Source: a virus
Taxonomy: Duplodnaviria; Heunggongvirae; Uroviricota; Caudoviricetes
DNA: 9,179 bases
Strand: one strand, 5' to 3'
IMG/VR virus record: IMGVR_UViG_2548876955_000006
Coordinates: 1-9,179 of that record
The notes under the pieces: model-generated
Database searches by the model: none
What the model was told of the DNA's origin: nothing
The model's input: the letters and a program-made list of their open reading frames with translations, nothing else
Made by a program: the position numbers and the translations under genes
Shown here: positions 1 through 9,056 of the stretch, in pieces
Layout: the number at the start of each line of letters is the position of its first letter
Numbering within the stretch: the stretch's first letter is position 1

Positions 1-33
1 AAAGTTAACCATCTGTGCGGCGATGTTTTTCAT
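1..33 (-). CDS. P: Replication protein P, 5' end only (runs off the window edge)
   Basis: Reverse complement of 1-33 reads ATG AAA AAC ATC GCC GCA CAG ATG GTT AAC TTT = MKNIAAQMVNF, the lambda P N-terminus as I recall it. Its ATG (31-33) overlaps the O stop (30-32) in an ATGA arrangement, as in lambda. Confidence 0.85.
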   Translation of the reverse strand, partial: MKNIAAQMVNF

Positions 34-929
34 AAATCCACCCCGTAAATCCAGTCAGTGTTTGTCAGGTCGAGTTTTGGTTTGCTGGCTGTCACGCCTG
101 CCTGTTGCTTGTTACGGTTGATTTCGAGCTGGGTCCACTTGTCGCGGAGTTTGGCCGGGCTCAGCACGTTACCGGACCAGAAGTTGTCCTGGCATGCCCA
201 GCGGAACAGTACGCACATGTCGCGATGGTTACGTCCGTCACGTTCACGCATCAGGCGGATATCGTTAGCCCACCCTGCAAAATTCGGTTTTCTGGCTGAT
301 GGCGCGATGGTCTTCACCATGTCAAACATCCACTCTGCGGCGGTCAGGTCTTCTGCTGTTCCCCACTTGCTGCCGCTCTGAATTGCAGCATCCGGTTTAA
401 CCACAGAAAGATCGTTTTCTGGCTGGTCAGAGGATTCGCCAGAATTCTCGGACGAATAATCTTTTCTTTTTTCTTTTGTAATAGTGTCTTTTGTGTCCCC
501 CTGTTTTGAGGGATAGCAATCCCCCAATTTGAGGGATGTTTTATCCCTCGTTTTAGGGGATTTTCCCTCGTTTTGAGGGATACACCATTCTGAGATGTTT
601 TTATTTGGTCCAAACATGCCGCCTTGCTGCTTGATAATATTCATTCTGACGAGTTCTAACTTGGCTTCATTGCACCGTTTGACGGGTAACTTTGTAATCT
701 CGCTAAGTTGAGAATCGGTGATTCTGTCCATTGGTTTATTCCACCCATAGGTTTTACGCAGAATGGCAAGCAGCACTTTAAACTGTCGCTTGGTCAGATC
801 TGCGCCTGAATAAGCCTCAAGCAGCATATTTGATAGTCTGGCGTAACCATCATCGAGATCTGCCACATTACGCTCCTGTCCGGCAAAGTTACCTCTGCCG
901 AAGTTGAGTATTTTTGCTGTATTTGTCAT
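30..929 (-). CDS. O: Replication initiator protein O (lambda O-like)
   Basis: 299-aa ORF MTNTAKILNFGRGNFAGQERNVADLDDGYARLSNMLLEAY...DWIYGVDL, matching lambda O from memory. AGGAG Shine-Dalgarno upstream of the ATG at 927-929. Contains the ori iterons internally. Confidence 0.95.
   Translation of the reverse strand: MTNTAKILNFGRGNFAGQERNVADLDDGYARLSNMLLEAYSGADLTKRQFKVLLAILRKTYGWNKPMDRITDSQLSEITKLPVKRCNEAKLELVRMNIIKQQGGMFGPNKNISEWCIPQNEGKSPKTRDKTSLKLGDCYPSKQGDTKDTITKEKRKDYSSENSGESSDQPENDLSVVKPDAAIQSGSKWGTAEDLTAAEWMFDMVKTIAPSARKPNFAGWANDIRLMRERDGRNHRDMCVLFRWACQDNFWSGNVLSPAKLRDKWTQLEINRNKQQAGVTASKPKLDLTNTDWIYGVDL
498..583. repeat. Origin of replication: four iterons (O-binding sites) inside the O gene, with adjacent AT-rich stretch (approx 440-480)
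   Basis: Four ~18-19 bp repeats of the form (A)TCCCTC-N-TTGAGGGA(T): ccctgttttgagggat, atcccccaatttgagggat, atccctcgttttaggggat, ttccctcgttttgagggat. Lambda ori has this architecture. Confidence 0.85.
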
Positions 930-932
930 AAT
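904..932 (+). promoter_or_regulatory. Po promoter for oop RNA
   Basis: -35 TTGAGT (904-909), 17-bp spacer, -10 CATAAT (927-932), placing the start about 7 nt downstream at the oop 5' end. Confidence 0.5.
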
Positions 933-939
933 GACTCCT

Positions 940-1016
940 GTTGATAGATCCAGTAATGACCTCAGAACTCCATCTGGATTTGTTCAGAACGCTCGGTTGC
1001 CGCCGGGCGTTTTTTA
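940..1016 (+). ncRNA. oop: oop antisense RNA (antisense to the cII 3' end), with intrinsic terminator
   Basis: Sequence gttgatagatccagtaatgacctcagaactccatctggatttgttcagaacgctcggttgccgccgggcgtttttt matches lambda oop RNA as recalled. It is 77 nt, ends in a GC-rich hairpin plus T6, and overlaps the 3' end of cII on the opposite strand. Confidence 0.8.
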
Positions 1017-1255
1017 TTGGTGAGAATCGCAGCAACTTGTCGCGCCAATCGAGCCATGTCGTCGTCAACGACCCCCCATTCAAGAACAGCAAGCAGCATT
1101 GAGAACTTTGGAATCCAGTCTCTCTTCCACCTGCTGATCTGCGACTTATCAACTCCCACAGCTTCCGCTGTCTTCTCAGTTCCAAGCATTGCGATTTTGT
1201 TAAGCAACGCACTCTCGATTCGTAGAGCCTCGTTGCGTTTGTTTGCACGAACCAT
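962..1255 (-). CDS. cII: Transcriptional activator CII
   Basis: The internal Met of ORF 962..1315 gives the 97-aa MVRANKRNEALRIESALLNKIAMLGTEKTAEAVGVDKSQISRWKRDWIPKFSMLLAVLEWGVVDDDMARLARQVAAILTNKKRPAATERSEQIQMEF, identical to lambda CII as recalled. AAGGAA Shine-Dalgarno upstream of the ATG at 1253-1255. Confidence 0.95.
   Translation of the reverse strand: MVRANKRNEALRIESALLNKIAMLGTEKTAEAVGVDKSQISRWKRDWIPKFSMLLAVLEWGVVDDDMARLARQVAAILTNKKRPAATERSEQIQMEF
1233..1246 (+). promoter_or_regulatory. CII-binding site TTGC-N6-TTGC of the pRE promoter (would drive plus-strand transcription toward cI)
   Basis: ttgcgtttgtttgc lies just inside the 5' end of cII on the opposite strand, the lambda pRE arrangement. 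Confidence 0.6.
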
Positions 1256-1334
1256 ATGTAAGTATTTCCTTAGATAACAATTGATTGAATGTATGCAAAT
1301 AAATGCATACACCATAGGTGTGGTTTAATTTGAT

Positions 1335-1367
1335 GCCCTTTTTCAGGGCTGGGATGTGTAAGAGCGG
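1335..1367 (-). promoter_or_regulatory. nutR (boxA + boxB) N-utilisation site
   Basis: Minus strand reads CGCTCTTACACA (boxA, 1356-1367) followed by GCCCTGAAAAAGGGC (boxB stem-loop, 1335-1349), between cro and cII. Confidence 0.8.
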
Positions 1368-1374
1368 GAATGTC

Positions 1375-1590
1375 TTAAGCGGCTTTGTGTTCCGGCGGGA
1401 ACACGTCATCAAGACTGACTTCTGCGCCTAACTTGTTTAGGCACTCAACAAGAGCACGGCATGTTTTAAGGTCTGGGAAGCGACGACCAGATTCCCAATG
1501 TCCGATAGCTCCCTGTGTGCATCCAACTGCCTTAGCAAGTGTTGTTTGAGAGATATTCAGTGACTCTCGATATTTTCGTAGGTTGCTCAT
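1375..1590 (-). CDS. cro: Cro-like repressor (HTH, XRE-type; not lambda Cro)
   Basis: 71-aa MSNLRKYRESLNISQTTLAKAVGCTQGAIGHWESGRRFPDLKTCRALVECLNKLGAEVSLDDVFPPEHKAA, from the internal ATG of ORF 1375..1761 with a GGAGG Shine-Dalgarno. Helix-turn-helix signature. Divergent from cI and followed by nutR-cII. Confidence 0.85.
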   Translation of the reverse strand: MSNLRKYRESLNISQTTLAKAVGCTQGAIGHWESGRRFPDLKTCRALVECLNKLGAEVSLDDVFPPEHKAA

Positions 1591-1701
1591 ATGCCCTCCA
1601 TAGTAACCATGAAACAATAATACGATATGTACTTTTAGAATGCAAACAAAAAATACATCTTGTGCATGGATGGTTTTAGTACAGAGCGTAATAATAAGGG
1701 T
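1591..1701. promoter_or_regulatory. OR operator region with divergent PR (minus) and PRM (plus) promoters
   Basis: 111-bp cro-cI intergenic region. PR candidate on the minus strand: -35 TTTGCA (complement of 1641-1646), 18-bp spacer, -10 TATTAT (complement of 1617-1622). Operator-like sites sharing the core RTACA-N-CGTA: 1620-1634 (tacgatatgtact) and 1678-1692 (agtacagagcgtaat), with a weaker middle site near 1650-1664. Confidence 0.5.
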
Positions 1702-2361
1702 ATGAAAATGAAATGGTATGAACTGGCTAGATCCAGAATGAAAGAGCTCGGCATAACTCAAGAGAAGTTAGCTGAAGAGCTTGGTATGACGCAGGGTGGA
1801 ATTGGTCACTGGTTGCGCGGATCTCGTCATCCATCTCTTGACGAGATTGGTGTGGTGTTTAAATACCTTGGTATTGATAACGTCTCATTCAACCACGACG
1901 GTACATTTTCACCTGTTGGCGAATACTCATCTGCCCCCGTTAAAAAACAATATGAGTACCCTGTTTTTTCTCATGTTCAGGCCGGGATGTTCTCGCCTGA
2001 GCTTAGAACCTTTACCAAAGGTGATGCGGAGAGATGGGTCAGCACAACCAAAAAAGCCAGTGATTGTGCGTTCTGGCTTGAAGTTGAAGGTAATTCCATG
2101 ACCGCGCCAACAGGATCCAAGCCAAGCTTTCCTGACGGGATGTTAATTCTCGTTGACCCTGAGCAGGCTGTTGAGCCAGGTGATTTCTGCATAGCCAGAC
2201 TTGGTGGTGACGAGTTTACCTTCAAGAAACTGATCAGGGATAGCGGTCAGGTGTTCCTACAGCCACTAAACCCGCAATATCCAATGATTCCATGCAATGA
2301 TAGCTGTTCCGTAGTAGGGAAAGTTATCGCCAGCCAGTGGCCTGAAGAGACATTTAGTTAA
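1702..2361 (+). CDS. cI: CI-type phage repressor (N-terminal HTH plus LexA/S24-like autocleavage domain)
   Basis: 219 aa from ATG 1702 ([37 protein letters not shown]...), with AAGGG Shine-Dalgarno. The C-terminal domain carries an Ala-Gly cleavage site (VQAGMF), the catalytic Ser (GNSM) and Lys (FKKL), and matches the lambda cI C-terminal domain as recalled. The N-terminal domain is non-lambda. Confidence 0.9.
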
Positions 2362-2392
2362 CAGCCTCACCACTCTAAAGCACACAACAATA

Positions 2393-2421
2393 ACCCGACC
2401 TTAGTGTCGGGTTTTCTTTTT
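2393..2421 (+). terminator. Intrinsic terminator downstream of cI
   Basis: Hairpin acccgac-cttagt-gtcgggt followed by TTTTCTTTTT. Confidence 0.6.
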
Positions 2422-2440
2422 CCAAAATATAAACCCACTA

Positions 2441-2521
2441 AATACAAAGCGTTATAAAAAACTAATTATATTTAGAACATTTTGTATTGACTCAATAAAG
2501 TACAAATCGTACTATTTAGCC
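2441..2521 (+). promoter_or_regulatory. OL operators and PL promoter
   Basis: -35 TTGACT (2487-2492), 17-bp spacer, -10 TACTAT (2510-2515), start near 2522 (ATCAGCAGG, as for the lambda PL transcript). Operator-like sites of the same family as OR: 2442-2455 atacaaagcgttat, 2474-2488 (complement aatacaaaatgttct), 2499-2513 agtacaaatcgtact. Confidence 0.55.
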
Positions 2522-2554
2522 ATCAGCAGGACGCACTAACCACCATGAAGGTGA

Positions 2555-2585
2555 TGCTCTTAAAAATTAAGCCCTGAAGAAGGGC
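2555..2585 (+). promoter_or_regulatory. nutL (boxA + boxB)
   Basis: TGCTCTTAAAAATTAA followed by GCCCTGAAGAAGGGC (boxB hairpin, 2571-2585) in the PL leader, matching lambda nutL apart from one boxA position. Confidence 0.85.
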
Positions 2586-2742
2586 AGCATTCAAAGCAGA
2601 AGGCTTTGGGGTGTGTGATACGAAACGAAGCATTGGCCGGAAGTGCGAATCCGGATTAGCTGCAAATGAGCCAATCGGGGGTGTTTTCGTTCAGGACTAC
2701 GACTCACACACACCACCAAAGCTAACTGACAAGAGAATCCAG

Positions 2743-4565
<1,823 letters not shown>

Positions 4566-4635
4566 TGGAGCACCTGTGTTGTTCTGAGGTGAGCATATCA
4601 CCTCTGTTCAGGTGGCCAAATTCAGTGTGCCACTA

Positions 4636-4893
<258 letters not shown>

Positions 4894-4926
4894 TTAAAAG
4901 ACAGGCATACTAATAAACACTGCACT

Positions 4927-4954
4927 GTGTATTCATTCCAACGAGTGAATACAC
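4927..4954. promoter_or_regulatory. Perfect 9-bp inverted repeat GTGTATTCA-N10-TGAATACAC (possible regulator binding site or RNA hairpin)
   Basis: Read directly from the sequence. No adjacent T-tract on either strand, so it is unlikely to be an intrinsic terminator. Confidence 0.35.
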
Positions 4955-5016
4955 GGAGCAATGTCGCTCGTAACTAAACAGGAGCCGACTTGTTCTGATT
5001 ATTGGAAATCTTCTTT

Positions 5017-5040
5017 GCCCTCCAGTGTGAGGGCTTTTTT
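5017..5040 (+). terminator. Intrinsic terminator on the plus strand upstream of cIII (tL-like)
   Basis: GCCCTC-cagtgt-GAGGGC hairpin followed by TTTTTT. The T-tract is only on the plus strand. Confidence 0.6.
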
Positions 5041-5106
5041 ATATGCATACCAATAACGCTTCACGAGAGGCGTTTTCGTTATGCAATCAAATATAAGGAG
5101 TTACCC

Positions 5107-5241
5107 ATGATGCACTTTCAGCTCGCGGGTAGCGGCGTCATGTCCGCTTTCTACCCGCTCGAATCTGAATTATCACGCCGAGTTAAACAATTAATCAGAG
5201 CAGCAAAGAAACAACTGGAGGCGTTATGCGCAATGAAATAA
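5107..5241 (+). CDS. cIII: CIII-like protein (putative FtsH inhibitor)
   Basis: 44-aa MMHFQLAGSGVMSAFYPLESELSRRVKQLIRAAKKQLEALCAMK with AAGGAG Shine-Dalgarno. Resembles the lambda CIII pattern (M.Y.IAG...ESLLERI.RKL) and occupies the cIII position before kil. The ORF-track start at 5002 is an upstream over-extension. Confidence 0.6.
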   Translation: MMHFQLAGSGVMSAFYPLESELSRRVKQLIRAAKKQLEALCAMK

Positions 5242-5378
5242 CCATCAATCACCAGATGCTTCGTGCAGCACAAAACAAAGCAGTAATAGCCAGATTTATT
5301 GGTGATTCCAAAATGTGGCTTGAAGCAAATAAAGCGATGAAATCAGCTATCAACCTTCCGTGGTATCGCAGGAAATGA
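5226..5378 (+). CDS. kil: Kil-like protein (host cell-division inhibitor)
   Basis: 50-aa MRNEITINHQMLRAAQNKAVIARFIGDSKMWLEANKAMKSAINLPWYRRK, absent from the ORF track because it is short. Its start overlaps the cIII 3' end, as kil does in lambda. The IARFIGD-KM segment resembles lambda Kil from memory. Confidence 0.5.
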   Translation: MRNEITINHQMLRAAQNKAVIARFIGDSKMWLEANKAMKSAINLPWYRRK

Positions 5379-5453
5379 GTTTTACAGATAACTGGTCAGA
5401 CGAAGAATTCATTCGTCAGATGAAAGAATTAATCGGTAACGAAGGAGATATTC

Positions 5454-5624
5454 ATGTCACTTGCAACCACCGTGAAGGAGAGCAAGTTACAGAGACGCAT
5501 GTACACGCAGCAGGCGTTAATGTATCGCCAGAAGGGAGATCGTGAAGGTGTTCGCGTCTTTTTAAATGCGGCAAAGACCGAAGTATTAAATCAGCGTTAT
5601 TTCCTTGGTCCATGTCCATTCTGA
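5454..5624 (+). CDS. Hypothetical small protein (56 aa) at the position lambda gam occupies
   Basis: MSLATTVKESKLQRRMYTQQALMYRQKGDREGVRVFLNAAKTEVLNQRYFLGPCPF. Strong Shine-Dalgarno AAGGAG 6 nt before the ATG. Its stop precedes the SSAP gene by 8 nt. No family recognised. Confidence 0.45.
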   Translation: MSLATTVKESKLQRRMYTQQALMYRQKGDREGVRVFLNAAKTEVLNQRYFLGPCPF

Positions 5625-5632
5625 GGTGAATT

Positions 5633-6340
5633 ATGGATTTGAATAAATTCGATGAGCCATTCAGCCCTGAAGATATCGAATGGCGAATACAGCAAAGCGG
5701 TAAAACACGCGATGGCAAGGTGTGGGCTATGGTGCTGGCTTATGTCACGAACAGGGCAATCATGAAACGCCTGGACGATGTTTGCGGCAAAGCAGGATGG
5801 CGCAATGAATACCGCGATATTCCCAACAACGGAGGCGTTGAATGCGGCATATCAATCAGGATTGATTCCGAATGGGTAACCAAATGGGATGCTGCTGAAA
5901 ACACGCAGGTAGAAGCCGTCAAAGGTGGTCGTTCCGGCGCAATGAAGCGCGCTGCCGTTCAGTGGGGAATCGGTCGGTATCTGTATAACCTTGAGGAAGG
6001 TTTCGCACAAACATCTCTCGATAAAAAGCAGGGGTGGCACAGGGCAAAACTGAAGGATGGAACAGGATTTTACTGGCTCCCTCCATCGCTGCCGGGATGG
6101 GCAATCCCAGCATCAGATAACAAACCATCACCAGAAAATACCAACCAGAAATCTCCATCGGTTGACTGCGAACAAATCCTGAAAGACTTCAGCGATTATG
6201 CATCAACAGAAACTGACAAGAAAAAACTCATCGAGCGTTATCAGCGTGACTGGCAATTAATGGCTGGCAACGAGGAGGCACAGGCTAAATGCGTTCAGGT
6301 AATGAACATCAGAGTTAACGAACTAAAACAGGCGGCATAA
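5633..6340 (+). CDS. Rad52-like single-strand annealing protein (Sak-type recombinase)
   Basis: 235 aa with GAGGTG Shine-Dalgarno. Motifs typical of the phage Rad52/Sak family (...RDGKVWAMVLAYV...GGVECGISIRI...GAMKRAAVQWGIGRYLY). Occupies the position of lambda bet. Confidence 0.7.
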   Translation: MDLNKFDEPFSPEDIEWRIQQSGKTRDGKVWAMVLAYVTNRAIMKRLDDVCGKAGWRNEYRDIPNNGGVECGISIRIDSEWVTKWDAAENTQVEAVKGGRSGAMKRAAVQWGIGRYLYNLEEGFAQTSLDKKQGWHRAKLKDGTGFYWLPPSLPGWAIPASDNKPSPENTNQKSPSVDCEQILKDFSDYASTETDKKKLIERYQRDWQLMAGNEEAQAKCVQVMNIRVNELKQAA

Positions 6341-6808
6341 ATGTCTCACTTGGACGGAATTATTAAAAGATTCGAGTCCAGCTACAAAGTTAATGAAACA
6401 ACAGGTTGCTGGGAGTCTACCTATTCAAAAAACAAAGGAGGATACACAAAATTTGTAGCCTTTGGCGTAACAATGCTTTCTCATCGGGTTGCTTTTGAGC
6501 TTTATCACTCCCCCATTCCATCTGGGAAGATGGTTTGCCACAAATGCGATAACCCATGCTGCGTTAATCCTGAACATCTCTTTTTAGGTAGCGCGCAAGA
6601 AAACATGGACGACAAGATAGCAAAAGGAAGGCATCGTGGAGCCAAGAAAGGTCATGCTCATCATGGTGCAAAATTAACAGAGTGGCAGGTTATAGAAATT
6701 AGGAAAAGACTCTCTGAAAAAGAGAGTCAGTACAAGATAGCAAAAGACATGGGTGTATCTCAATCAATTATAAGCAACATAAAAACTGGCAAGAGGTGGA
6801 GCAAATGA
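6341..6808 (+). CDS. HNH endonuclease (HNH_3-like) with C-terminal HTH
   Basis: 155 aa with the HNH signature ...[45 protein letters not shown]... The ATG directly follows the SSAP stop, and its own stop overlaps the ssb ATG. Confidence 0.85.
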
Positions 6809-7311
6809 GTTCTCGCGGGATAAATAAGGTGATTATCCTTGGTCGGGTAGGACAAGACCCGGAAGTTCGATACTCACCATCAGGAACAGCGTTCGCTAAC
6901 CTGACAATAGCCACGTCAGAACAATGGCGAGATAAAAATACTGGCGAGCAAAAGGAATTGACTGAATGGCATCGTGTTGCTGTATCCGGGAAACTGGCTG
7001 AGGTCGTGGGGCAGTATGTGAAAAAAGGTGATCAGATTTATTTCGAGGGAATGCTGAGAACCAGAAAGTGGAAAGACCAGTCAGGGCAAGACCGTTACAC
7101 AACCGAGGTTCATGTCGGAATTAATGGCGTGATGCAAATGCTTGGCGGCATTGGCGACAGCAAACAACAAGCAGCCAGCAGGCAATCACAGAAGCCACAG
7201 CAGCAATCATCACCAGCACAACACAACGAACCTCCGATGGATTTTGACGACGATATACCCTTTGCACCAGTAACTCTCCCCTTCCCTCGTCACGCTATTC
7301 ACGCAATTTAA
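6805..7311 (+). CDS. ssb: Single-stranded DNA-binding protein
   Basis: 168 aa [44 protein letters not shown]...[15 protein letters not shown]...[18 protein letters not shown]..., with the acidic C-terminal tail [11 protein letters not shown]. Closely resembles E. coli SSB as recalled. Confidence 0.9.
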
Positions 7312-7324
7312 TCAGGAGAAAATC

Positions 7325-7618
7325 ATGCCAGCGCCTCTGTATGGTGCGGATGACCCGCGCCGCTGTTCCGGCAATTCCGTATCGGAGGTGCTGGATAAAT
7401 TCAGAAAAAACTACGATCGGATAATGTCGCTACCGCAGGAAACGAAAGAGGAAAAGGAATTTCGCCATTGTATATGGCTTGCAGAGAAAGAAGAACGCGA
7501 GCGAATTTACCAGACATCAATCCGACCATTCCGCAAAGCCACATATACCCACTTCCCTGAAATTGACCCGCGCCTGCGTAATTATCGATCACGCTATGGC
7601 GCTATCAGTAATGACTGA
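7325..7618 (+). CDS. Hypothetical protein (97 aa)
   Basis: ORF with Shine-Dalgarno CAGGAGAAA 6 nt upstream of the ATG. No recognised domain. Part of the co-directional early-left operon. Confidence 0.5.
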
Positions 7619-7628
7619 GGAATTTACC

Positions 7629-8307: not shown

Positions 8308-8357
8308 GCGATCGGTTAAGTGCTATAGTAATGCGCTTTTGTATTTATGGAGTGAAT

Positions 8358-9056
8358 ATGAAAAATATCCTACTGGCATCATTGTTAGTGGCATCGCCGG
8401 GTGCATTTGCAGCCAGCTTTGACTGCCAAAAGGCTTCGACAGCAATCGAACATAAAATCTGCGATAACGAACGTCTGTCAAAATTAGACGAACAGCTTAG
8501 CTCTGCCTATTCTAGTGCCCTCAAAGGAAACCCAGAGAACGCAGACACCCTAAAAATGGTTCAACGTCAGTGGGTAAATATGCGTGGAAAACTCACTGAT
8601 AATAAGGCTCTGGAGCTGGCTTATCTTATCCAAATTAATGGCCTCAAAGGTTTGGGGAGTTCAGTCAGCGTAACAGCGGCCAATGACATACCCACGTCGG
8701 CGCAGAAACATTCTGAAGAGCAGGAAGAAACAAGTAAGGCAGAAGCTAAGTCGGTCAAGAACGGCAATGAGCTAACCTTAGAGTCATTCCGAGCTAAATA
8801 TGTAGAAGTAGATGGTGAGTATTACAGCACGACATCCATTCCTAGAGGCAGTTCGTTCTTGTTCACTTGCGCCAGTCGTATTGCTGATGACCAAGTGAAT
8901 ATTTGGAAGAAACAGGCAGCCAAAGAGGGCAAAATCGACTTATTCTTTGAGGTTGAGAATCACTTACACACGGCTATGTTGAACGCCAATTTTCAGAAGT
9001 TGAATTCAGACCCTGCCAAAAGAGGTATTTGTAATCTGATTAACGCAGTGCCGTAA
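8358..9056 (+). CDS. Secreted DUF1311 / LprI-like (lysozyme-inhibitor family N-terminal domain) protein
   Basis: 232 aa from ATG 8358 with GGAG Shine-Dalgarno. Signal peptide MKNILLASLLVASPGAFA|AS. DUF1311-type pattern FDCQKASTAIEHKICDNERLSKLDEQLSSAYSSALKG...LKMVQRQWVNMR. C-terminal half of unknown function. Followed by a strong terminator. Confidence 0.7.
   Translation: MKNILLASLLVASPGAFAASFDCQKASTAIEHKICDNERLSKLDEQLSSAYSSALKGNPENADTLKMVQRQWVNMRGKLTDNKALELAYLIQINGLKGLGSSVSVTAANDIPTSAQKHSEEQEETSKAEAKSVKNGNELTLESFRAKYVEVDGEYYSTTSIPRGSSFLFTCASRIADDQVNIWKKQAAKEGKIDLFFEVENHLHTAMLNANFQKLNSDPAKRGICNLINAVP

Follow-up and report, generated by a model that had tools for sequence, protein, structure and literature searches.

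Positions 1369-2520 of the window, by which we mean the whole 9,179-nt stretch of tailed-phage DNA analyzed here, very probably represent an immunity cassette of the VT2-Sakai (Sp5) type, set in the lambda-allele backbone of a natural lambdoid prophage by recombination at module boundaries. The cassette would comprise cro and cI, a three-part OR carrying PR and PRM, a terminator, and a three-part OL carrying PL, and the lambda alleles around it would be N and nutL on one side and nutR, cII, O and P on the other. The mosaic is genuine yet ordinary, and its kind is already known: a 2023 paper (PMC10742460) relays from Fattah et al. (2000) that VT2-Sa and lambda CI have high C-terminal and low N-terminal homology, and CI of the VT2-Sakai type has been placed in a single clade with lambda CI at 61% overall identity (PMC8951638). 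A mosaic immunity module had been proposed in the initial annotation, and our analysis upholds that interpretation with the corrections given below.

Comparison with phage lambda (NC_001416) by blastn resolved the region into blocks. Positions 1-1368, with O, cII and nutR, are 98.5% identical to lambda, and positions 2521-3066, with the PL transcript start, nutL and N, are 95.6% identical; of P, the window has just the initial 29 nt. The C-terminal part of cI (1951-2355) is 93.8% identical to lambda, and a short segment (2384-2419) matches the lambda terminator 3' of rexB at 86%, whereas 1369-1950 and 2420-2520 gave no DNA match in NC_001416. The unmatched DNA covers cro, the cro-cI intergenic operators, cI codons 1-81, and the OL/PL promoter region. 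Identity to lambda steps sharply at 1368/1369, ~1950, 2355-2361 and 2520/2521 (Table 1). We take 2521 to be PL +1 from the lambda PL transcript and from the position relative to the annotated OL1. The initial annotation had described the flanks as lambda-like and had named two junctions, one between cro and nutR and one inside cI, between the DNA-binding and the cleavage/oligomerization parts; the alignment with lambda agrees on the flanks and locates both junctions. Its inventory did not include a junction at PL +1 or another at the cI stop, nor the lambda type of the terminator or the VT2-Sakai identity of the cassette. On the flanks as they stand, establishment (cII at PRE) and antitermination (N at the nut sites) would be lambda's own.

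Table 1. Features of the immunity region and its flanks (window positions; right and left are used in lambda map terms)
Feature	Position	Strand	Remarks
cII	962..1255	-	97/97 aa identical to lambda cII; flank, outside the substituted cassette
PRE, cII-binding motif	1233-1246		TTGC-N6-TTGC
nutR	1335..1366	-	boxB GCCCTGAAAAAGGGC 1335-1349, boxA CGCTCTTA 1359-1366; both equal to the lambda sequence
Right-hand breakpoint	1368..1369		6 nt past the cro stop, 2 nt from boxA
cro	1375..1590	-	71 aa, all-alpha HTH_3 protein
PR, candidate	1617..1646	-	TTTGCA-18-TATTAT or TTGCAT-17-TATTAT, toward cro; position agrees with AP000422
OR1, putative	1618..1634		TAATACGATATGTACTT; overlaps PR spacer and -10
OR2, putative	1651..1667		AAATACATCTTGTGCAT; weakest of the six sites; center ~43 bp upstream of the predicted PRM start
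OR3, putative	1677..1693		TAGTACAGAGCGTAATA; overlaps the predicted PRM -10 (TAATAA/AATAAT, ~1689-1697)
cI	1708-2361	+	217 aa; alternative ATG at 1702
cI N-terminal part, residues 1-81	1708..1950	+	HTH_3 and linker; VT2-Sakai type, 78/81 aa
cI-internal breakpoint	~1948-1951		residue 81/82, 10 residues ahead of the Ala-Gly cleavage site
cI cleavage-site region and Peptidase_S24 domain, residues 82-217	1951..2361	+	133/136 aa identical to lambda cI
cI-end breakpoint	2355-2361		at the cI stop
Intrinsic terminator	2392..2421	+	stem-loop and T-run, ending the PRM/PRE transcript
OL3, putative	2440..2456		AAATACAAAGCGTTATA
OL2, putative	2473..2489		TAGAACATTTTGTATTG; 3-bp overlap with PL -35
PL, candidate	2487..2515	+	TTGACT-17-TACTAT
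OL1, putative	2498..2514		AAGTACAAATCGTACTA; closest to consensus; covers PL spacer and -10
Left-hand breakpoint	2520..2521		lambda homology restarts at the presumed PL transcript start, CATCAGCAGGACGCAC...
nutL	2555..2585	+	boxA TGCTCTTA 2555-2562 (lambda: CGCTCTTA), boxB GCCCTGAAGAAGGGC 2571-2585; lambda-type flank
N antiterminator	2743..3066	+	lambda type, in the block 2521-3066

The immunity type, which the initial annotation had left to be established from the N-terminal part of cI and from Cro, is that of VT2-Sakai. The window proteins are identical to their AP000422 counterparts at 210/217 (cI) and 69/71 (Cro) positions, with every difference outside the recognition helices, and between the stop codons of cro and cI the DNA is 92.8% identical. 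In AP000422, annotations for cI, cro, PR, PRM, PL and six putative operators stand at matching places. With respect to lambda immunity, the DNA-binding domain, Cro, the operators and rexA-rexB are all non-lambda or absent; the DNA-recognition residues of cI and Cro and the operator family at OR and OL are those of VT2-Sakai. The VT2-Sakai/Sp5 immunity region is common to Stx2 II, Nil2, 2851 and PA phages and encodes the "Clade I" CI of Stx phages. Like the window, it has collinear cro and cI, six homologous 17-mers, an OR spacing of 32-33 and 26 bp, and a lambda-like C-terminal half in cI. The two differ in their flanks, which are HK022-like (cII/O/P) and 933W-like (N) in VT2-Sakai but lambda alleles in the window, and in the cI-OL interval, where VT2-Sakai has two open reading frames (~1.3 kb) and the window a terminator only. 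Their OL/PL regions are only 81% identical, and the C-terminal domain of the window cI is slightly nearer to lambda (93.4%, nucleotide identity) than to Sakai (91.2%). Across the whole window, no Rfam family reached the gathering score.

The cI gene is read from the ATG at 1708. A 233-aa open reading frame that starts at a TTG (1660-2361) had also been considered; its start would fall inside OR2, homologues are annotated from the ATG equivalent to 1708, and the longer frame is an ORF-caller artifact. The claim that cI matches lambda from about residue 95 fits that frame only. From the likely ATG, the junction falls at residue 81/82 and the lambda-like stretch begins at YEYPVF, but the C-terminal match itself stands (Table 1). 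The protein has an HTH_3 domain (residues 9-56, E = 8e-11, over the curated Pfam cutoff) and a Peptidase_S24 domain (residues 85-207, E = 9e-29) with a Ser/Lys dyad and an Ala-Gly site, as a lambdoid CI does, and its gene and cro diverge across a multipartite operator, a second set of sites lying at PL. This HTH_3 and S24 architecture is common to lambda cI (NP_040628; 3bdn, 1f39, 2ho0), and the match to 3bdn, the structure of the full-length lambda repressor, has E = 2e-96.

The N-terminal domain had been called unrelated to that of lambda, and this did not hold. Although the 81 residues are only ~20% identical to lambda overall, 12/26 residues (46%) are identical in the helix-turn-helix (E = 1e-7), where the equivalents of Gln44, Glu34 and Asp38 are kept and the recognition helix QGGIGHW pairs with lambda Q44-L50; structures of the lambda repressor N-terminal domain match at an E value of about 1e-3. 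By this similarity, the domain is a distant homologue of lambda's, 20 residues shorter and without the lambda N-terminal arm region. From residue 82 onward, cI would be the lambda repressor module, with the Ala-Gly cleavage site, the Ser/Lys autopeptidase, and the dimer, tetramer and octamer surfaces. The counterparts of lambda A111-G112, S149 and K192 are Ala92-Gly93, Ser130 and Lys173, which do not vary among 14 homologues. Since cI from this point is the lambda module, its RecA-stimulated self-cleavage and cooperative binding are expected to be lambda-like. Because the cleavage/oligomerization half shares 98% identity with its lambda cI counterpart, it is also conceivable, if rather unlikely, that cI and the lambda repressor of hetero-immune co-resident prophages form mixed dimers or mixed cooperative tetramers/octamers. 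The cooperativity logic of the switch may likewise differ from that in lambda, as this family combines a conserved 33/26-bp OR geometry with the same C-terminal domain.

Cro was rightly described as non-lambda: the window protein gave no BLASTP alignment with lambda Cro at E values up to 100. It aligns instead with the N-terminal domain of cI, with 22/62 residues identical (E = 5e-13), and is, by this alignment, a paralogue of that domain. The recognition-helix motif that the initial annotation had seen in both proteins (VGCTQGAIGHWESG in the Cro stretch shared with cI) is real, and because it falls inside this alignment, it reflects paralogy rather than chance. Position 2 of the recognition helix co-varies between cI and Cro (Q/Q, K/R, Q/Q and K/K), in four lineages only. 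An all-alpha HTH_3 Cro that is homologous to the repressor N-terminal domain and has recognition-helix residues in common with it is also the arrangement of phages 434 and P22, whose repressor structures (434 repressor and P22 C2) match the window cI N-terminal domain and Cro weakly (E = 0.006-0.4). With its nearly identical recognition helix, Cro would read the sites of cI and shut PRM, as in phage 434. The 434 operator is a 14-mer, ACAA...TTGT, and the window 17-mer, AAGTACA...TGTACTT, differs from it in both sequence and length.

By homology, cI dimers would read 17-bp pseudo-palindromes (consensus AAGTACAAATTGTACTT) through the HTH_3 domain. A weight matrix made from the VT2-Sakai operators placed OR1-3 and OL1-3 ahead of every other one of 9,163 window positions, and the core pattern ARWACRNNNYGT was found 11 times versus 1.07 expected, with 9 of the 11 within the six operators; both enrichment tests are partly circular, because the matrix and the degenerate pattern were built from homologous or identical sites. 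Each site differs from its VT2-Sakai counterpart by 1-2 nt, mainly in the center or at the outer positions. In six related switches, whose cI N-terminal domains range down to ~43% identity, the cro-cI interval always holds exactly three sites with an AC-N5-GT core, at center spacings of 32-34 and 25-27 bp. The window OR follows this geometry with 33/26 bp; its OL has 25/33 bp, and the lambda spacings are 24/23. Because the operator geometry is not lambda's, the expectation of lambda-like cooperativity is extrapolated solely from the C-terminal domain. No extra operator scores in the 16 bp that separate OR1 from OR2, where the PR -35 lies, and the lambda operator TATCACCGCCAGTGGTA has no match within three mismatches anywhere in the window.

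On this layout, cI bound at OR1 and at OL1/OL2 would block PR and PL. A consensus promoter scan did not pick up PRM, which we placed from the AP000422 annotation. cI at OR2 probably activates it, as suggested by the distance of the OR2 center from the predicted start (Table 1) and by the retention of acidic residues, E18 and E22, at the Glu34/Asp38 equivalents. The lack of rexA/rexB and the terminator directly after cI had been noted correctly: the 78 bp from the cI stop to OL3 hold the terminator alone. Its stem carries one compensatory change, G-C to A-T, relative to the 86% homologous post-rexB terminator of lambda. In the literature searched, we found no binding or footprinting of cI or Cro of this type, and the operators are "putative" also in the VT2-Sakai record. 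The only binding data found used lambda CI instead of the cognate repressor (PMC10742460), and PMC10810198, consulted on the repressor and the cI-downstream cargo of the PA phages, has nothing on operators.

Recombination at module boundaries, whether homologous or illegitimate, would have produced the mosaic, and the near-identical C-terminal half of cI and the flanks would be sequence common to phages of differing immunity. Vertical descent without any recombination in cI, in which selection for a new immunity drove rapid divergence of the DNA-binding domain, of cro and of the operators while purifying selection froze the C-terminal domain, appears very improbable. It would accommodate the N-terminal homology that persists in the helix-turn-helix (12/26) and in the matches to lambda structures (E of about 1e-3), as well as the strong purifying selection on the C-terminal domain, where 23 synonymous and 3 nonsynonymous codon differences separate the window from lambda. 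The profile, however, is stepwise, with a jump from undetectable DNA similarity to 93% within ~5 nt, and synonymous sites in the C-terminal domain are ~93% conserved as well, a conservation that selection at the protein level does not explain. Furthermore, at least four classes of N-terminal domain are joined to one C-terminal domain (at least 80% aa identity), and junctions also lie at other positions (P0111). A C-terminal domain of 58% is in turn paired with an N-terminal domain that is Sakai-like (81%).

The initial annotation had the new DNA-binding domain grafted onto a lambda-like C-terminal domain; the composition stands, but the direction does not, as the C-terminal domain forms a three-way star, with nucleotide identities of 93.4% between the window and lambda, 91.2% between the window and VT2-Sakai, and 92.9% between lambda and VT2-Sakai. 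We give somewhat less than an even chance to the reverse course, in which the pairing of a Sakai-type N-terminal domain with this C-terminal domain came first and lambda cI is a derived mosaic that took up the C-terminal domain, or in which both drew repeatedly on a shared pool of C-terminal alleles. In other Enterobacteriaceae (P0002-P0007), Sakai-type N-terminal domains and their C-terminal domains diverge in step, at ~80-86% in both halves, and the window C-terminal domain is not nested in that of Sakai (15 sites unique to the window, 17 to Sakai and 8 to lambda, in patches), as this course would have it. Against it, proteins of Klebsiella, Yokenella and Citrobacter (P0052, P0072, P0093, P0110) combine lambda-type N-terminal domains with versions of the C-terminal domain at 82-86%. 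Both N-terminal types have long-standing associations with this C-terminal domain, neither demonstrably the older, and donor and recipient are not resolvable from the sequences compared.

The exact arrangement recurs at about 98-99% identity in five phages, vB_EcoP-720R6, vB_EcoP-683R2, phi458, Louie and Dewey, and with 99.9% identity a prophage of E. coli 2015C-4136CT1 (CP027550) has the identical mosaic; the cI DNA is 100% identical to that of 720R6. All six share lambda-type cII, cro and cI of the window type, the terminator, and lambda-type N, but they differ in the replication genes and in the remaining genome, and none has the IS insertion at 3389-4637 of the window. 720R6, a P22-like Lederbergvirus, has a primase/helicase where lambda P stands. 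At a coverage of at least 80%, 127 of the 5,426 complete E. coli genomes carry the arrangement, and the immunity type in some form occurs in more than 1,500 of them, 1,546 genomes having a match. The whole window, by contrast, is present to 80% or more at a single place in none of the complete E. coli genomes, and an exact 30-mer spanning the IS/phage junction had no match among the species-representative genomes. This distribution bears on a laboratory origin of the mosaic as a hybrid of the lambda imm434/imm21 kind. The breakpoints immediately beyond cro and at PL +1 resemble those of classical lambda immunity-substitution hybrids, which would favor such an origin, but the 127 genomes come from humans, birds, dogs and food, the five phages were isolated independently, and the arrangement is not confined to K-12 laboratory derivatives. 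The rest of the window, moreover, is non-lambda, with a Rad52-like/HNH/SSB/Abc2 recombination block, an IS3-family insertion and an LprI-like cargo gene, and the chance that the mosaic was made in a laboratory is negligible.

As a discovery, the mosaic matters little; it is a textbook case of modular phage evolution in which breakpoints coincide with functional boundaries. It places the switch core of a medically relevant immunity group of Stx phages within a lambda backbone. For this immunity type, widespread though it is, no biochemistry with its own repressor was found in the literature searched. With a C-terminal domain identical to lambda's, the type offers a natural system in which DNA-binding specificity and operator geometry vary while the machinery of cooperativity and cleavage would be held fixed.

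The window is a 9,179-bp lambdoid early region in the orientation opposite to the lambda map. We compared it with lambda (NC_001416) by blastn, down to word size 7, and used base-by-base alignments to place the steps. Four blocks homologous to lambda were found, whereas 1369-1950 and 2420-2520 gave no lambda match by blastn, word size 7 included. Thus, unlike the lambda-like flanks, cro and the 5' part of cI gave no DNA match to lambda. Two of the steps between these tracts lie where the initial annotation had placed recombination junctions, inside cI between the DNA-binding and oligomerisation/cleavage domains and between cro and nutR; the stop codons of cro and cI are the exact ends of the interval that it singled out, 1375-2361. 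The observation holds up, its location is correct and its interpretation, with the corrections discussed below, is essentially right. The nutR boxA is the same as in lambda; that of nutL is TGCTCTTA, the lambda counterpart being CGCTCTTA, and its T presumably agrees with the ribosomal rrn boxA consensus.

Features of the window, with lambda homology blocks and breakpoints
Feature	Position	Strand	Remark
P, first 29 nt	1-29	minus	
O	30-929	minus	
cII	962-1255	minus	97/97 identical to lambda cII
PRE element	1233-1246		TTGC-N6-TTGC
nutR boxA	1359-1366		
cro	1375-1590	minus	
OR1 (putative)	1618-1634		homologous to annotated VT2-Sakai operator
PR candidate	1646 to 1617	minus	consensus TTTGCA-18-TATTAT; overlaps OR1
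OR2 (putative)	1651-1667		homologous to annotated VT2-Sakai operator
OR3 (putative)	1677-1693		homologous to annotated VT2-Sakai operator
cI	1708-2361	plus	
Stem-loop and T-run	2392-2421		
OL3 (putative)	2440-2456		homologous to annotated VT2-Sakai operator
OL2 (putative)	2473-2489		homologous to annotated VT2-Sakai operator
PL candidate	2487-2515		consensus TTGACT-17-TACTAT; overlapped by OL1 and OL2
OL1 (putative)	2498-2514		homologous to annotated VT2-Sakai operator
nutL boxA	2555-2562		
N	2743-3066	plus	
IS3-family insertion, 1,249 bp	3389-4637	minus	orfA 4263-4601, orfB 3397-4236
cIII, kil, Rad52-like/HNH/SSB/Abc2 recombination block	about 5100-7620	plus	
cIII-like	within 5107-7618		phrog_550
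kil	5226-5378		
Small "recombinase" ORF	5360-5545		phrog_2123
Rad52/Rad22-family annealase	5633-6340		
HNH endonuclease with C-terminal HTH	6341-6808		
SSB-like ORF	6796-7311		name from annotations of matching genomes
Abc2, P22 anti-RecBCD protein	7325-7618		
Lambda block: O, cII, nutR	1-1368		98.5% identity
Lambda block: cI 3' two-thirds	1951-2355		93.8% identity
Lambda block: terminator that follows rexB	2384-2419		86% identity
Lambda block: PL transcript start, nutL, N	2521-3066		95.6% identity
Breakpoint	1368/1369		6 nt past cro stop, 2 nt from nutR boxA
Breakpoint	about 1948-1951		cI codon 81/82, ten residues ahead of Ala-Gly cleavage site
Breakpoint	2355-2361		cI last codon and stop
Breakpoint	2520/2521		PL transcript, first bases

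The two halves of the 217-aa repressor relate to lambda cI very differently. Residues 82-217 are identical to lambda cI at 133 of 136 positions, the differences being S139C, E217D and G236S (lambda numbering), and the protein matches the full-length lambda repressor structure 3bdn (E=2e-96). The N-terminal domain, which had been called unrelated to that of lambda, proved to be a distant homologue: the helix-turn-helix aligns with 12 of 26 residues identical (E=1e-7), matches to N-terminal structures of lambda repressor have E ~1e-3, and equivalents of Gln44, Glu34 and Asp38 are kept, the positive-control pair being E and E here. Cro, as proposed, is not of lambda type and gives no alignment whatever with lambda Cro. 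Since Cro aligns instead with the cI N-terminal domain (22/62 identity, E=5e-13) and HTH_3 is found in both, it is a paralogue of the repressor DNA-binding domain, as is Cro in 434 and P22; its closest solved relative is PDB 28tn_A, an 82-aa "lambda repressor-like protein" (E=2.5e-16, residues 1-69 aligned). The TQG(G/A)IGHW motif noted in both proteins falls within the cI-Cro alignment and aligns with lambda repressor Q44-L50, which we take from the known lambda structure to be the recognition helix.

A symmetrised weight matrix built from the VT2-Sakai sites (consensus AAGTACAAATTGTACTT) ranked the six putative operators as its top six positions across the whole window, with 0.38 sites at threshold in shuffled windows, and the core ARWACRNNNYGT occurred 11 times against 1.07 expected, with 9 of the 11 inside these operators; both tests are partly circular, because homologous or identical sites supplied their models. 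No lambda-type operator was found in the window. Operator centres are spaced 33 and 26 bp apart in OR and 25 and 33 bp in OL, compared with 24/23 in lambda, despite a C-terminal domain 98% identical. The PR -35 hexamer lies in the OR1-OR2 gap, not beneath OR2. The consensus promoter scan gave no match for PRM; going by the layout annotated in AP000422, the -10 would lie in or just past OR3, which would put the OR2 centre ~43 bp upstream of the PRM start, the site from which lambda cI activates PRM.

We identified the cro-OR-cI (N-terminal) segment in 64 phage records, at ~98-99.7% identity in vB_EcoP-720R6, 683R2, Louie, Dewey and phi458 and ~94% in VT2-Sakai, Stx2 II, Nil2, 2851, the PA series and others. 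Homology to VT2-Sakai (AP000422), at 92.8%, is bounded exactly by the stop codons of cro and cI, and the OL/PL region adds a further stretch at 81%; cI (210/217) and Cro (69/71) are nearly the same and the recognition helices identical. That record annotates PR, PRM, PL and six putative 17-mer operators, and labels its cI "similar to bacteriophage lambda CI." The cassette is therefore of the VT2-Sakai (Sp5) immunity type, set between a lambda-type N and lambda-type cII-O-P. The precise arrangement is present in five sequenced phages and, at 80% coverage or more, in 127 of 5,426 complete E. coli genomes (best, CP027550, 99.9%). According to a 2023 paper in Genes (PMC10742460), Fattah et al. (2000) described high C-terminal and low N-terminal homology between VT2-Sa and lambda CI, so the mosaic nature of this repressor was already published; the 2023 paper proposes residual similarity of the recognition helices as the cause of the reported cross-immunity and measured lambda CI as binding the VT2-Sa operators weakly, in the micromolar range. 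Elsewhere, VT2-Sakai CI and lambda CI, 61% identical overall, share "Clade I" (PMC8951638). Thus both the immunity type and its mosaic repressor are already known, and the arrangement is a common one.

Four related switches (L004, 1682-2654; L005, 1675-2660; L006, 1672-2648; L007, 1668-2654), whose cI N-terminal domains are 43-81% identical to that of the window, each carry a divergent HTH_3 Cro of 69-71 aa and exactly three AC-N5-GT-core sites in the cro-cI interval, their centres 32-34 and 25-27 bp apart, a geometry conserved in six related switches. Across four lineages, recognition-helix position 2 co-varies between cI and Cro (TQG/TQG, TKG/TRG, SQG/SQG and SKG/TKG), and operator position 2 is mostly A with Gln and mostly T with Lys or Arg, the Gln/A pairing recalling the lambda Gln44-A2 contact. 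This co-variation is suggestive, at four lineages, of cI and Cro reading the same putative sites.

The initial annotation had the DNA-binding domain "grafted onto" a lambda-like C-terminal domain. Three-way identities over the 408-nt C-terminal segment (window-lambda, 93.4%; window-Sakai, 91.2%; Sakai-lambda, 92.9%) cannot show such a direction. Unique sites there are patchy (window, 15; Sakai, 17; lambda, 8), and changes relative to lambda comprise 23 synonymous and 3 non-synonymous. The flanks are nearer lambda than this segment is, which argues that the flank exchanges came later than the event that gave both repressors a common C-terminal domain. Among 120 cI homologues from the protein database, at least four N-terminal classes occur together with a lambda-like C-terminal domain (at or above 80% aa). 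One homologue (P0028) joins a Sakai-like N-terminal domain (81%) to a 58% C-terminal domain; in another (P0111; E. coli, 214 aa) the N-terminal domain is of HTH_19 type and unrelated, the cleavage-site region diverges, and 100% lambda identity starts only at AFWLEVEG and lasts to the end, so the junction is a different one. Together, these point to common shuffling at or near the cI domain boundary.

As had been noted, rexAB is absent: the 78 bp from cI to OL3 hold a stem-loop with a T-run and nothing else. By alignment it is a homologue of the lambda post-rexB terminator, with a compensatory pair change in the stem (2392-2413; lambda CCCGGC...GCCGGG, window CCCGAC...GTCGGG) and 2 of 6 loop positions different. 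This slot, empty in the window (2362-2439), takes varying cargo: rexAB in lambda, a pair of unknown ORFs in VT2-Sakai (3988-5473), a 153-aa ORF and a 348-aa protein-kinase-domain ORF in L004 (2740-4241), and in L006 (2658-3348) ORFs with DUF3024 and DUF333.

Just downstream of N, the IS3-family insertion splits an opposite-strand ORF (flanks 3059-3388 and 4638-4815) in the lambda sieB position. The ORF is unbroken in phage 720R6 (164 aa, phrog_1244, function unknown), where the two flanks join directly and overlap by 3-4 bp, suggestive of a target-site duplication. Many E. coli genomes carry copies of this IS, 99.9% identical, at other places; we take the OrfA sequence to resemble IS911. The non-lambda recombination block (5107-7618) comes after short lambda-like remnants. 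An ORF at 8331-9056 (241 aa; phrog_4675, E=4e-94) has a signal-like sequence at its N terminus, weakly matches the LprI (lysozyme inhibitor) domain (E=2e-5), and is possibly a cargo gene of the early left operon.

The sequence itself shows the domain composition, the catalytic and cleavage residues, the operator-like sites and their conservation in relatives, promoter-like hexamers for PR and PL, the terminator and the breakpoints. By homology to lambda and 434, cI dimers would repress PR and PL from OR1/OR2 and OL1/OL2, activate PRM from OR2 and autoregulate via OR3, while Cro would shut PRM at the same sites and RecA would trigger Ala92-Gly93 cleavage. Pairwise cooperativity would come from the lambda-type C-terminal domain, as perhaps would OL-OR looping, which would span about 0.88 kb because rexAB is absent. 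Lambda cII at the lambda PRE would establish repression by antisense transcription through the foreign cro into cI. The OR spacing is conserved yet un-lambda-like despite the lambda C-terminal domain, and the shared C-terminal domain may permit cross-talk with lambda-type repressors.
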